A stretch of DNA of 64,000 nucleotides from an uncultured Candidatus Saccharibacteria bacterium (GCA_964401135.1 CAYNXC010000002.1:16457-80456); one strand, 5' to 3'. Shown: positions 32,589-43,252, counted from the stretch's first letter. Program-made: numbers and translations. Notes: generated by a model not told the origin, from the sequence alone.

Positions 32589-32666
32589 CACTAAGAACCT
32601 GGTAGTTTTGTGACCCAAGTACCTAAGGTTGTAGGGCGACCCAGGTACCTAGTAATTACCTGGAAA

Positions 32667-33911
32667 ATGCCCGACGAATATCGCAATCATCATTACGTAC
32701 CACAGTGGTACCAAAAGAAGTTCATGCTACCGAACGAGCATGAGTTATTTCACTTGGATTTAAAACCCGAGACGTTCACCGATCCTCGCGGCGTGGTTCA
32801 TACCAAGAAGCCATTACGGCGACAAGGTAGTAAAAAGTGTTTCGTCCAAGAGGATCTTTATACGACGAAGATTCAAGGTATCGAAACAAAGGATATAGAG
32901 AAATATTTCTTCGGCGATATTGATACCAAAGGTCGTCCTGCTGTCGAATATTTCGAGGGGTTTGATTATCCCCTTAAACCCTGGGGTGAATCACTTCAGG
33001 ACATCATGCGTTACATGAGTACACAGAAGCTCAGGACTCCGAAAGGTCTATCATTTCTTAGCGAGAAAATTGGAAGTAAGGATAAGGACGCGATTCTACG
33101 CAATATGATCCGAGTGCGTAATGTTCATGCCGCTATTTGGATGGAATGCGTCTGGCTTATTGCAGACGCTTCACAGTCGGAGACTAAATTCATCATCTCA
33201 GACCATCCCGTTACTGTTTATAATCGTGAATGCGGTCCTCGATCCAGTTACTGTCGAGACTCAAATGACCCCGAGATATGGCTTCAAGGTACGCATACAA
33301 TTTTTCCACTTTCCATAGATAAGGTTCTCATTCTCACAAATTTATCCTGGGTGCGGAATCCATATCAATCCGCAACCAATCTACGACCGAATCCAAATCC
33401 ATACCGCAATGCGATATTCAAATTTACTGACGTTCAGGTTCGACGACAATTAAGTGAACAAGAGGTACGAGAAATCAATTTCATCATAAAAAGCCGAGCT
33501 TCCCGATATGTAGCCGCAGCCAAAGAAGAATGGCTTTACCCAGAAAGACATGTATCCAAATCAGATTGGAACAAATACGGTCATGGATATCTTTTGATGC
33601 CCGATCCTCGCGCTATTCATTGGGGAGGAACCATAATGTGGGGCGGTGGCCCAGGCGGTCCAGGTGCAATGGATGAATATGGAAGACTGCCCGGAGATCC
33701 TGATTTTGAAGCAGAGACAACCAAAGGTAAGGAGTACCAAACGCTCCCTTGGTTTCAGGGAGAATTTGCAAAGCTGTTCGGTCCTTATCGCCGAGGCCGT
33801 TGTATGCAACATATTGAAATTGAAAAGGAACGGGACGATGATGAATTTCACCAGTACCATCTCGGTCTTCAGAAAAAGAGCTATAAGGAACGACACGGCA
33901 AGAAGAAATAG
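32667..33911 (+). CDS. DUF4238 domain-containing protein (candidate anti-phage protein)
   Basis: The N-terminal motif NHHYVPQWYQKKF matches the hallmark HxVPQxYLxxF start of DUF4238. The ORF-track GTG start at 32610 is less likely than the ATG at 32667. Confidence 0.7.
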   Translation: MPDEYRNHHYVPQWYQKKFMLPNEHELFHLDLKPETFTDPRGVVHTKKPLRRQGSKKCFVQEDLYTTKIQGIETKDIEKYFFGDIDTKGRPAVEYFEGFDYPLKPWGESLQDIMRYMSTQKLRTPKGLSFLSEKIGSKDKDAILRNMIRVRNVHAAIWMECVWLIADASQSETKFIISDHPVTVYNRECGPRSSYCRDSNDPEIWLQGTHTIFPLSIDKVLILTNLSWVRNPYQSATNLRPNPNPYRNAIFKFTDVQVRRQLSEQEVREINFIIKSRASRYVAAAKEEWLYPERHVSKSDWNKYGHGYLLMPDPRAIHWGGTIMWGGGPGGPGAMDEYGRLPGDPDFEAETTKGKEYQTLPWFQGEFAKLFGPYRRGRCMQHIEIEKERDDDEFHQYHLGLQKKSYKERHGKKK

Positions 33912-33914
33912 TTT

Positions 33915-35225
33915 TTAGTTGGAGTCCTCTGTAAGCAGAGTAATCTTCTTATCGTTCAGCACCAATCTGCTTCTTAGATGACCCATCAGTTCACGCTTCT
34001 CAAGCGGTGTACCCTCGCGGAGTACGTATTTTGCATATTCCTTTGTCGCAATATCGTCTTCATCGATCTGCATCTTGGGCTTGCCTTTGACCGCAAGTCT
34101 CTGCAATCTATTGAATCGCTTAATTTCTTCTTCGAGCTTCATCCGCATGCCAAGCTCGTTCATGGTGAGCTTGTCGATAATCTTGAATAGTTCCTCGACG
34201 AGTTCTTCCTCGCGGATATATTTGTTCTTGCAGTTCCTGTCTCTCGCTTTCGAGCAAGAGTAGTAGACGTACTTTGCATTCGTGCCATCTTTGAGCAGTT
34301 TGTATTTCTCCTGCGCCGTGATGCCCGATCCGCACATGCCACAGGTAAATAATTTGGTGAAGGCAAACTCTCTGTTCTCGCGCACAACTTTGTCGCGCTT
34401 CAATTGCTCCTGCACTTTCTTGAATAATTCCTCGCTGATTAGCGGCTCATGTGTTCCTTGATACCAGTTGCCGCTGTTCTTTGGATACTCGAATGGTCCG
34501 TAATAAATGGGCATCTGGAGCATGCGATATACACCAGAGAGTGTGAGTGGCTTGTTACCTCGCGTATAGAAGTTAAGCTCGAAACGGAGCCAGTTGTACA
34601 CTTTTCTACCGCTCCACAAATCGTATGCCACTTTTTCAAACATCTGCTTCACGATCGGTGCACGTTGCGGATCAATAACGATACGGCATTTCTTTTCTAT
34701 CAATTTCTGGTTGAGATATCCGAGCGGCGCCATGCCCGGCCACAACCCCATCTCCACTCTCGTTCTCAAACCTCGCTTCACGTTGATGCCCCGGTTGTCG
34801 TTCTCGAGCTTCGCCTGCGATCCAAGGATCATGAGGAGGAATTTTTCATTCGGATTATTAGTAAACTTTTGTCCGTAGGTGCGTATTTCCTTGAGCTTTC
34901 CAACGTCCATAAGATCGATCACTTTGCCGAGGTCGCCTGCGTTACGGCTGATGCGATCCGGCGCCCATGTGAGGATACCGTTGTATTTGTCATCCCTAAT
35001 TTCTTCGATGATCTCGTTAAATACAGGGCGCTGGCCAGTCTCCTTGGCGGAGTGAGATTCTCGCTTCATTGTCACAACTTCCAAATTTTCTCGCTCTGCT
35101 AGCTGGAGCATCTCCTTGATCTGGGAATCGATAGAAAGCGCCTGTCGTTCCTCCGCTTCGCTCGACTTGCGGGCATACAGGCAATATCTGATTGGTTTCT
35201 GTTCCTTTACGGTTGCGTTTTCCAT
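33915..35225 (-). CDS. Large serine recombinase (resolvase domain + recombinase domain + zinc ribbon)
   Basis: YCLYARKSSEAEERQALSIDSQ (catalytic Ser region), the central recombinase domain (GMAPLGY) and the Zn ribbon FTCGMCGS...YYSC. 436 aa. Confidence 0.9.
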   Translation of the reverse strand: MENATVKEQKPIRYCLYARKSSEAEERQALSIDSQIKEMLQLAERENLEVVTMKRESHSAKETGQRPVFNEIIEEIRDDKYNGILTWAPDRISRNAGDLGKVIDLMDVGKLKEIRTYGQKFTNNPNEKFLLMILGSQAKLENDNRGINVKRGLRTRVEMGLWPGMAPLGYLNQKLIEKKCRIVIDPQRAPIVKQMFEKVAYDLWSGRKVYNWLRFELNFYTRGNKPLTLSGVYRMLQMPIYYGPFEYPKNSGNWYQGTHEPLISEELFKKVQEQLKRDKVVRENREFAFTKLFTCGMCGSGITAQEKYKLLKDGTNAKYVYYSCSKARDRNCKNKYIREEELVEELFKIIDKLTMNELGMRMKLEEEIKRFNRLQRLAVKGKPKMQIDEDDIATKEYAKYVLREGTPLEKRELMGHLRSRLVLNDKKITLLTEDSN

Positions 35226-35349
35226 GCATACACGAACATACCGGATACGGGTACGAAGTCTAGCCGCATACGAAACACAGAGCAGAAGCGGGAGGAAGTC
35301 AACTACACAAAAATCCCGAGGGAAGCTAAGGTCTTTTAGGGGGTGAGAA

Positions 35350-42190: not shown

Positions 42191-42233
42191 GAGTGGATAA
42201 CCCGACTACACAAATCTAAAGAAGGAAGCTAAG

Positions 42234-42596
42234 TTACTTACGTTCGTCCTCAGGCCATGGCTTTGGGCCGAACATCTCGTCGATCTTCTTGATCTCGTCT
42301 TCTGTAAGTTCGCGCTTCGGAGGCCGTTCCGGTACTGGGTCTCCTTTGTACTTCGGCGGCTTTCCGTCCATATGCTCCCAGATGAGCTTGATCATCCGAT
42401 GATCGCCGTCCAGTGCCATCCTTATGATTTTCTCAACCAACGCATCTGCAATAGTCTTGTCTTTATCACTCACAATCCTTTTACTGAGTATCTCTTGGAA
42501 TTGGCTCGTTAGTGTTTTGCCCGGAGGCCTTCCGTTCAAGTTTCTTCTCGGGTCGAATCCGCTTTGGAATGGCTTGAGGTTATTGATGTTGCCCAT
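42234..42596 (-). CDS. DUF5681-like phage-type protein, paralog 1
   Basis: MGNINNLKPFQSGFDPRRNLNGRPPGK shows the GxxxxRNxxGRPxG motif. The internal ATG at 42596 is chosen because the upstream extension overlaps paralog 2. Confidence 0.55.
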   Translation of the reverse strand: MGNINNLKPFQSGFDPRRNLNGRPPGKTLTSQFQEILSKRIVSDKDKTIADALVEKIIRMALDGDHRMIKLIWEHMDGKPPKYKGDPVPERPPKRELTEDEIKKIDEMFGPKPWPEDERK

Positions 42597-42945
42597 GGTC
42601 GTTTCGTTTAAAATACTTCTCAAAATCCGCCTGTTCTTCGGGCGTGTACTCGACCTTTTCTTGCGGTACAAATGGGGTAGGTACCACAAACTCGTCAGGC
42701 ACCTTGCCGTCCACTTGGTCGATGACCATACTCATGGCTTTCAGGTTGCCCTTGGCCGCCTTCCACACAAGCTGCATTACGATAGCCTTATCCTTCCGTG
42801 CCATCTTGCCGTTGAAGTAGACTTTCTCCTTCAATATTTCCATAATCACGGTTCTCACATTCCGAGAACCCTTCGGTCTACCCTTGGTATTCCTTCTTGG
42901 ATCGTACCCTGATTGAAAGGGCTTCAATGTTTTTATATTTCCCAT
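42580..42945 (-). CDS. DUF5681-like phage-type protein, paralog 2
   Basis: MGNIKTLKPFQSGYDPRRNTKGRPKGS. Same architecture as paralog 1 and in tandem with it. The longer ORF-track start at 43098 is possible. Confidence 0.55.
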   Translation of the reverse strand: MGNIKTLKPFQSGYDPRRNTKGRPKGSRNVRTVIMEILKEKVYFNGKMARKDKAIVMQLVWKAAKGNLKAMSMVIDQVDGKVPDEFVVPTPFVPQEKVEYTPEEQADFEKYFKRNDHGQHQ

Positions 42946-43252
42946 ATCTGGTATTTTACCGGCTTTTTTGTTTGTAAAGGGGTGCATTACTTTCTCGCAG
43001 TTATTTTCACAGATAAAAGGGTGAAAAACGGCTTCTTTTAAGCCTTCGATTTTTCCCGTAATTTCACAGTATTTACGGGTATTTTGACCCCGACCCACAA
43101 ACCTCCTTCGGCTTCCCGAAAAAGTGCTAGAATACCCTTACGACACCTAATCATATGGGTACCGTACCCATAGCCCCCGCAAATTGAAACTTCCTGTTCC
43201 GAAAGCCGAATTGACCGTTGCATGAATAGTATTATCGTCCTAATATATATAC

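Follow-up and report, generated by a model that had tools for sequence, protein, structure and literature searches.

The stretch of DNA analysed here (64,000 nucleotides (nt) from an uncultured Candidatus Saccharibacteria bacterium, GCA_964401135.1 CAYNXC010000002.1:16457-80456; hereafter the window) contains an island directly 3' of a tRNA-Ser(GGA) gene. Our comparative analysis indicates that positions 32590-43180 very probably constitute a single integrative mobile element of 7,610 bp, enlarged by a later 2,981-bp insertion caused by an insertion sequence (IS). The element encodes a large serine recombinase of 436 amino acids (aa), the last bases of the tRNA-Ser gene form its insertion point, and a four-nucleotide core, CCGC (32586-32589 and 43177-43180), bounds the island and is the only sequence common to the left and right attachment sites, attL and attR.

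The extent of the element is defined by two further sequences, L206 and L207 (loci are designated by L and a number), which were reached via a protein (P0121) identical to the product of the second DUF5681 gene of the element. L206 (7,862 nt) comprises the entire element without the IS, with 2 mismatches and a 1-nt indel over 7,610 nt; there the element adjoins a tRNA-Ser(TGA) gene, and the flanks on both sides are unrelated to those of the window. L207 represents the window's own locus, including the cupin side, again without the IS and with a single copy of TTATTTAA, the 8-bp sequence duplicated around the IS in the window. Since the ends in L206 coincide to the base, the element is one unit spanning 32590-43180, and since this near-identical unit sits at tRNA-Ser(TGA), it moved very recently between two tRNA-Ser genes. 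Comparison of the four junctions from the two integration sites revealed that homology breaks exactly at CCGC on both sides, the element starting with ACTAAGAACC... and terminating with ...CCCATAGCCCCCGC (Table 1). At the level of sequence comparison, these data demonstrate the ends of the element, its target, the 4-nt core, its mobility and the order of events. An earlier note on this DNA had proposed an island at 32589-43252 and suspected an integrative element moved by a serine recombinase; its left boundary at tRNA-Ser(GGA) stands, the right end is corrected to 43180 by the junctions in L206 and L207, and the suspected mode of movement is supported by the occurrence of the same unit at two tRNA-Ser genes, by the base-exact ends and by the tRNA-linked clade to which the recombinase belongs.

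The element-derived part of attL, the P' arm, is about 98% identical in L049, a locus whose htpX is only 65% identical and which has the P' arm and the integrase alone in common with the window element. The P' motif (...CCGC[A/C] yyrAsAAyyTnGTAk....rTGACCC) directly follows tRNA-Ser in many integrase loci. With a position-specific scoring matrix built from other loci, 32591-32623 was the sole strong P' site in the 64 kb (23.4 bits versus 6.2 bits for the next best), and no second copy of the P' arm was present in the window. In a held-out test with a threshold of >10 bits, P' sites were detected at 23 of 45 tRNA-Ser genes in integrase loci and at 1 of 61 control tRNA-Ser genes, the sole positive control being L049, which bears a 91%-identical recombinase.

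The right end of the element is likewise conserved: about 95 nt (43088-43180) match the far ends of the elements in L122 and L127 (recombinases 83% identical), with the similarity ending at CCGC, and the same stretch is identical in L206 through CCGC, beyond which the flanks differ. The terminal P arm, GGGTACCGTACCCATAGCCCCCGC, is a degenerate mimic of the tRNA 3' end (14/24 positions, ungapped). The 22-nt end of the tRNA occurs once in the window, with up to 3 mismatches allowed; the earlier statement that the right end holds no copy of the tRNA 3' end was thus accurate, CCGC alone being shared, even though a weakly tRNA-like P arm, overlooked earlier, is located there. In L127 the P arm is joined straight to the P' arm, and junctions of P and P' without a tRNA were also found in L158, L087, L144 and L174, which is consistent with either attP-like sites or junctions of tandem elements, as read from the sequences. 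The junction in L144 lies 540 nt away from the tRNA, and in L174, at a distance of 13 kb from the genuine tRNA, a 22-nt copy of the tRNA 3' end precedes a further P' arm; in a fuzzy search for displaced tRNA fragments upstream of the related integrases, L174 alone had one. Beyond the element, the B' arm, AAATTGAAACTTCC..., resembles the L001 sequence just past tRNA-Ser, CAATAGAAACTTCG..., and is placed exactly at the boundary. The conserved right end, in L127 as well, includes an extended -10-like sequence, TGCTAGAAT (43125-43133), oriented outward over attR. Once the element is integrated, this sequence faces the host cupin gene; on a circle it would face the cargo slot, with attP in between.

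Comparison with related genomes, found by an HtpX scan of species-representative genomes, provided further evidence of insertion. The scan placed the window in a Patescibacteria genome of Parcubacteria/Paceibacteria type; an exact look-up of its HtpX gave no match. In the closest relative, L001 (htpX 89% and recA 96% identical), the gene order is htpX, tRNA-Ser, 2.1 kb of other genes, cupin, efp, sigma, recA and ftsK. DNA homology between the window and L001 ends at 32589 and restarts at approximately 43239, and the island is accordingly absent from the nearest genome, which answers the earlier suggestion to look for an empty site among relatives.

The base composition of the island also differs from that of its surroundings. 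The guanine-plus-cytosine (GC) fraction is only 0.36-0.38 in the two halves of a surface-protein gene (35.5-37.5 kb and 39.5-41 kb), as against approximately 0.49 in the flanks, in agreement with the AT-richer interval reported earlier; the DUF4238 and integrase genes have values of 0.45-0.48. The left 32.6-kb flank contains no ACGT site, with about 72 expected under a second-order Markov model. The island holds 16 of the window's 25 ACGT sites (24.7 expected; first at 32695, last at 42240), and the right flank has nine, seven of them within the 23S rRNA gene (57477-60473) and the others at 51612 and 51883, so that the island accounts for 16 of the 18 sites outside the rRNA (binomial p = 7e-11). 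TCGA and CATG are depleted in host DNA as well (observed/expected ratio (O/E) 0.42 and 0.50, respectively). Because ACGT is present in the island and nearly absent from the host parts, the island is recognizable as recent foreign DNA. Avoidance of ACGT is common to L001 (1 site in 11 kb) and L002 and is not seen in L049, L029 and L040, which suggests a lineage-specific, strong restriction pressure on this tetranucleotide, as judged from its frequencies. In L001, the region between tRNA-Ser and cupin (2007-4112) encodes a 219-aa secreted protein and a DUF2975 membrane protein. These two genes lack ACGT and therefore look native; they may have been either lost by the window lineage or gained by L001 from a related lineage.

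Several observations weigh against the interpretation of the island as one element integrated by its own recombinase. The flanks in L206 extend only about 110 nt on each side, and that locus may stem from a different host or from another tRNA-Ser site in the window's genome. The match between the B' arm and L001 is not significant region-wide (23 of 200 shuffles reach its score); only its placement at the boundary and the junctions compared afterwards justified keeping it. When viral contigs were scanned by pattern for the P' arm, the P arm and a reconstituted attP, only L089's own contig or nothing came back, and three such scans produced neither a circular form nor a rebuilt attP of this exact element. 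The crossover lies inside CCGC, where CC, CG and GC fit the sequence equally, GC and CG being palindromic; a palindromic central dinucleotide is unusual for serine integrases. The inverted symmetry of P and P' is weak, and genes for a recombination directionality factor, replication or transfer were not recognized in the element.

The recombinase contains an N-terminal resolvase domain (PF00239, E = 5.5e-18), a recombinase domain (PF07508, E = 1.7e-14) and a zinc ribbon (PF13408, E = 2e-9), and it belongs to the PHROG 95 integrases (E = 3.7e-65). The catalytic Y-x-R-x-S signature is present, YARKS aligning to YLRRS of the SPbeta integrase. Its relatives in the Protein Data Bank (PDB), the A118 and SPbeta integrases, match residues 199-376 and 17-353, respectively, and are distant (E ~1e-9). 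Recombinase scans yielded a clade of 117 loci, 37 from IMG/VR viral contigs and 80 from metagenome contigs. A tRNA gene was found downstream of the recombinase in 54 of the 117 loci and was convergent, i.e., on the opposite strand, in every one of them. For recombinases at least 65% identical, the downstream gene was tRNA-Ser in 44 of 45 cases, with five anticodons represented, and more distant relatives adjoin tRNA-Gln, Glu, Asp, Asn or Trp; the 627 kb upstream of the recombinases contained four tRNA genes only, none of them Ser. Furthermore, a terS-like gene and terL directly precede the recombinase in 27-35 of the 117 loci (PHROG 38, E = 4e-80), and the clade thus includes temperate phage integrases. 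The window element has a single recombinase gene and no partner recombinase. A second convergent large serine recombinase (45-56% identical) was observed right after the first in L081 (9301-10596), L125 (11301-12065), L141 (1184-2479) and L121 (14666-15928), located between the first recombinase and the tRNA in L141 and belonging to a separate element at an adjacent tRNA-Glu in L121. ARAGORN also reported tRNA-Ser genes with the unusual anticodon ACT adjoining elements in L086, L135, L155, L156, L161, L171 and others, frequently alongside another tRNA-Ser gene.

The way in which large serine integrases are known to act allows the following mechanism of integration to be inferred. The 436-aa recombinase would pair attP on a circular form of the element with attB on the host chromosome. 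The attP site would consist of a P arm mimicking the tRNA T-arm and acceptor strand, CCGC and the P' arm (predicted as ...GGGTACCGTACCCATAGCCCCCGCACTAAGAACCTGGTAGTTTTGTGACCC...), and attB would consist of the tRNA-Ser 3' end (T-arm and 3' strand of the acceptor) with approximately 25 bp downstream; the predicted empty sites are ...TTCGAATCCCTCCCTCTCCGCAAATTGAAACTTCC... for tRNA-Ser(GGA) and ...TTCGAATCTCACCCCATCCGCCAAAAACAGC... for tRNA-Ser(TGA). A 2-nt staggered cut inside CCGC, around the discriminator G73/C74, would be followed by rotation and religation, which would keep the tRNA body intact without a replacement fragment and alter the encoded CCA alone. The sequence is GCCA in L001 and in the L206 target, as against GCAC after insertion, and because the encoded CCA tail is changed in this way, a CCA-adding enzyme would be needed. 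Since a crossover inside CCGC keeps the tRNA body, no tRNA fragment is expected to be duplicated and no long direct repeat to arise. Excision would require a directionality factor. The IS1595-family element with its restriction-modification pair entered the surface gene later.

A crossover at the discriminator/CCA boundary would mean that no tRNA fragment need be carried by the element, and tRNA mimicry by the P arm would let one enzyme use several tRNA-Ser isoacceptors. We tentatively suggest, as an idea with somewhat less than an even chance of being correct, that a serine-integrase clade of Patescibacteria phages and elements took over the tRNA 3'-end niche, with a discriminator/CCA crossover, a tRNA-mimic P arm, tandem accretion and a defence hotspot between integrase and attL as its hallmarks.

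The IS in the surface-protein gene has terminal inverted repeats that agree at 24 of 26 positions, and deletion of the IS together with one copy of TTATTTAA restores a single surface-gene reading frame. Both L206 and L207 have the empty site with a single TTATTTAA and lack the IS, which identifies it as a later, polymorphic insertion. By its predicted products, the IS is a carrier of a type II restriction-modification pair, which the earlier note had missed together with orf177. A transposase-methyltransferase-nuclease unit of about 2.42 kb with the same inverted repeats was also detected in L199, L201, L203, L204 and L205, with transposases 83-87% identical to that of the window and with clear 8-bp duplications around the unit in L199 and L203. 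These units sit in phage-like Paceibacteria contigs, in RusA/HNH, D5_N primase and NinG/Terminase_2 contexts. The window copy has an additional ~0.55 kb, containing orf177, between the left inverted repeat (IRL) and the transposase gene. The IS contains no ACGT and no TCGA site (5.7 and 10.9 expected, respectively) and for this reason looks host-adapted; GATC, considered as a clue to the sequence specificity of the restriction-modification pair, is only mildly depleted in the host part of the window (O/E 0.73).

Among the cargo genes, DUF4238 is probably a single-gene anti-phage defence by analogy, since a DUF4238 protein, a homologue from a P2 hotspot, guards E. coli against T7 (bioRxiv 10.1101/2021.01.21.427644). 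The gene is called as 414 aa also in L206, and the integrase-DUF4238 module recurs in L140 and L169; no PADLOC match was obtained for DUF4238, orf177 or DUF5681. The recombinase stop codon lies 95-143 nt from the tRNA in 10 loci; in 44 others, the slot between them is filled with 0.8-6 kb of highly variable genes. Recurrent gene families of the slot match Shedu SduA, PDC-S11, a HEPN/PD-Lambda-3_B protein and GajB-like helicases; by gene content, the slot between integrase and attL, where DUF4238 is located, is hypervariable and defence-rich in relatives. Other parts of related elements frequently carry restriction-modification genes of types I, IIG and III, Dcm and reverse transcriptases. The earlier view of the island as a landing pad for defence and mobile genes is therefore partly right, resting on DUF4238 in this slot and on the IS with its restriction-modification pair.

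The surface-protein gene is intact in L206 (1,175 aa), and its two parts are continuous in L206 and L207. The spacer of the promoter-like site upstream of this gene holds a run of ten G (35652-35661), which is G9 in L206, and the L207 contig ends inside the run; this difference may reflect phase variation or a homopolymer sequencing error. A sigma-70 promoter scan gave 22 hits versus 21 expected. The XRE regulator, also present in L206, has as its best PADLOC match a restriction-modification control (C) protein (E = 1.5e-21), with no adjoining restriction-modification genes. The PHROG family of the second DUF5681 gene, 26239, has no assigned function. The block of XRE and surface genes lies between the copies of a 29-nt direct repeat (79% identity; two exact 10-mers in register), which was absent from the other loci when searched. 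Pfam recovered every gene that the earlier note had named in the island (DUF4238, recombinase, XRE, IS-split surface gene and two DUF5681-like genes) and in its housekeeping flanks. To the left lie groEL, lemA, DUF2207 and htpX, to the right cupin, efp, an ECF-type sigma factor, recA and ftsK.

Table 1. Features of the integrative element and its surroundings (window positions unless a locus is named; a slash marks the junction in att sites)
Feature	Position or sequence	Strand	Evidence or remarks
tRNA-Ser(GGA)	32504-32589	+	ARAGORN, Rfam tRNA
B arm, 3' part of tRNA-Ser(GGA)	~32565-32589	+	junction alignment; L001 homology ends 32589
Element left end, attL P' arm ACTAAGAACCTGGTAGTTTTGTGACCC...	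32590-32643	+	conserved motif is first ~33 nt
DUF4238 protein, 414 aa	32667-33911	+	PF14022 E = 5e-17, 62.6 bits vs cut-off 27
Large serine recombinase (integrase), 436 aa	33915-35225	-	Pfam Resolvase, Recombinase, Zn_ribbon_recom
29-nt direct repeat, copy 1	35302-35330		repeat search; between XRE and integrase
XRE/HTH_3 regulator, 70 aa	35350-35562	-	Pfam HTH_3; upstream of integrase, same strand
Promoter-like site TTGCAA, 17 nt, TAAAAT	35639-35667	+	upstream of surface gene
Surface-protein gene, 5' part	35682-36522	+	AT-rich; signal peptide; DUF2341 (Pfam)
Target-site duplication TTATTTAA, 8 bp, left copy	36515-36522
IS1595-family element, 2,973 bp	36523-39495	+	inverted repeats, Pfam
IRL	36523-36548		IS1595-family element
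orf177, 177 aa	36552-37085	-
IS1595 transposase	37198-38115	+	PF12762 E = 9e-44; N-terminal zinc ribbon PF12760 E = 6e-11
D12 N6-adenine methyltransferase, Dam-like	38117-39025		PF02086 E = 6e-60; PADLOC MTase_II E = 2e-88
PDDEXK_11/DpnII-like nuclease	38937-39473		PF20472 E = 3e-38; weak DpnII match E = 5e-4
Right inverted repeat (IRR)	39470-39495		IS1595-family element
Target-site duplication TTATTTAA, 8 bp, right copy	39496-39503
Surface-protein gene, 3' part	39504-42190	+	Laminin_G_3, two fn3/Pur_ac_phosph_N, two PG_binding_1 (Pfam)
29-nt direct repeat, copy 2	42205-42233		repeat search; directly 3' of DUF5681a stop
DUF5681-like gene a	42234-42689	-	Pfam E = 1.3e-5, under curated cut-off; 120 aa in L207
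DUF5681 gene b, 135 aa	42580-42987	-	Pfam E = 7e-9; PHROG 26239; P0121 100% identical
Element right end, conserved	43088-43180	+	homologous to L122, L127 right ends
P arm of attR GGGTACCGTACCCATAGCCCCCGC	43157-43180	+	core CCGC at 43177-43180
B' arm AAATTGAAACTTCC..., original post-tRNA sequence, displaced 10.6 kb	43181-43213	+	aligns to L001
attL, window	CCCTCTCCGC/ACTAAGAACC
attL, L206	CCCCATCCGC/ACTAAGAACC
attR, window	CCCATAGCCCCCGC/AAATTGAAAC
attR, L206	CCCATAGCCCCCGC/CAAAAACAGC
P/P' junctions	L174 386-446; L144 12828-12925; L127 1023-1080; L158 4100-4160; L087 11993-12070

Besides a self-integrating element, the island might be a phage satellite or decayed prophage that would rely for packaging and cell-to-cell transfer on a helper phage whose integrase belongs to the same clade, which we consider unlikely, at about one chance in four. 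The position of related integrases directly after terS-like and terL genes, the 37 relatives in IMG/VR viral contigs, an approximately 10-kb element in L122 with a terS-like gene and without terL, and the phage association of DUF5681 (PHROG 26239) all speak for such an origin. However, no terminase, capsid, portal, primase or cos/pac feature was found in the window element (Pfam, PHROG), the comparison of DUF5681 with the terS-like family was unconvincing (hhalign probability 26%), and a 7.6-kb unit that is intact and near-identical at two sites is not decaying. Since it moved intact as this unit, the element behaves as a small autonomous integrative element. The prophage remnant proposed earlier as one of two options is consequently the weaker half of that proposal, lacking structural and packaging genes and having moved intact, although many integrase relatives reside beside terS and terL.

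It is very improbable that the island is a mosaic hotspot of several independent insertions by the tRNA, of which the recombinase element would be the integrase-proximal part only. Such a history would accommodate the uneven GC content of the DUF4238/integrase genes and the surface gene, the 29-nt direct repeat around the XRE-surface gene block, the tandem arrays in relatives L174 and L144, and the limited overlap with L049; against it, all 7,610 nt form one unit with the same end bases at another tRNA in L206, the window has a single P' site, and the IS is the sole demonstrably separate event. A role of the recombinase as a local invertase or resolvase, with the island having arisen otherwise, is hardly tenable: serine recombinases do include invertases and a secondary PHROG match was to a DNA invertase (E = 6e-16), but the full Recombinase and zinc-ribbon domains are typical of integrases, no inverted-repeat pair surrounds an invertible segment in the window, the association with tRNA and P' is clade-wide, and the element moved between two tRNA genes. 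Two further candidates were rejected. A tyrosine-integrase (Islander-type) island is contradicted by the lack of any open reading frame in 32590-43180 matching a tyrosine recombinase (Pfam, PHROG), by the lack of a displaced tRNA fragment and by a right end that is only a 14/24 mimic; an intact prophage is contradicted by the lack of capsid, portal, terminase and tail genes (Pfam, PHROG), terS and terL being present in relatives only.

The integrative element described here shares with phage-type large serine integrases (SPbeta SprA/YokA, A118, TP901-1, Bxb1 and phiC31) the domain set of Ser nucleophile, recombinase domain and zinc ribbon, the short att sites with a very short core and no long direct repeats, and the location of the integrase gene near one element end; it differs from them in its target, a tRNA 3' terminus instead of a protein-coding gene, and in the small size of the protein (436 aa). 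Islands linked to tRNA genes are usually attributed to tyrosine integrases, and tRNA genes are, to our knowledge, not commonly named as targets of serine integrases. A large recombinase survey does not mention tRNA (PMC10083194).

In the ssrA islands of Dehalococcoides, a CcrB-like serine integrase, DsiB, targets the tmRNA gene, and ssrA direct repeats are reported to bound the islands (PMC3146451). As in the window, the target is the 3' end of a gene for a small structured RNA, a serine integrase lies beside attL and the cargo is variable; the six-gene module of those islands includes DsiA, a second, small serine recombinase, whereas the window element has none and a 4-nt core, and the pairing known from SCC-type CcrB/CcrA or from DsiB/DsiA is not found with its single recombinase gene. 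Within the part of the literature covered, DsiB is the closest precedent, and a prior description of such integrases is possible. Islander-type islands and the tycheposons of Prochlorococcus (bioRxiv 10.1101/2020.12.28.424599) occupy the same tRNA 3'-end niche with tandem accretion and, as here, variability peaks by the tRNA, some relatives of the element being satellite-like with terS; however, they employ tyrosine integrases, regenerate the tRNA from an element fragment and leave a displaced fragment, neither of which the window element does. P2/P4-like defence hotspots (bioRxiv 10.1101/2021.01.21.427644) have in common with the element a short hypervariable slot near att and compact defence genes, including DUF4238, but belong to another host phylum and integrase family; the element is no relative of P2/P4, and its role in defence is suggested by analogy. 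Transposon-like restriction-modification units with 8-bp duplications have been previously described (PMC2853133), and the IS resembles these and IS1595 passenger elements in its DDE_Tnp_IS1595 domain and zinc ribbon, 26-bp inverted repeats, 8-bp duplication and mobile restriction-modification genes. In contrast to known units, a conserved three-gene unit of 2.4 kb recurs here in phage-like Paceibacteria contigs.

Our data point to a serine integrase clade of >100 loci that uses tRNA 3' ends with a 4-nt core, against the usual association of such sites with tyrosine integrases, and tools that seek displaced tRNA fragments would miss islands of this kind. Both attP and attB are derivable from the data, and the recombinase could serve as a new integration tool; if undescribed, the takeover of the tRNA niche would supply ready-made attP/attB pairs for a new integrase class. 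Little has been reported on the mobile elements of Patescibacteria, uncultured bacteria with small genomes; the element of the window represents a concrete, recently active route by which defence genes, surface proteins and restriction-modification transposons may pass horizontally among them.

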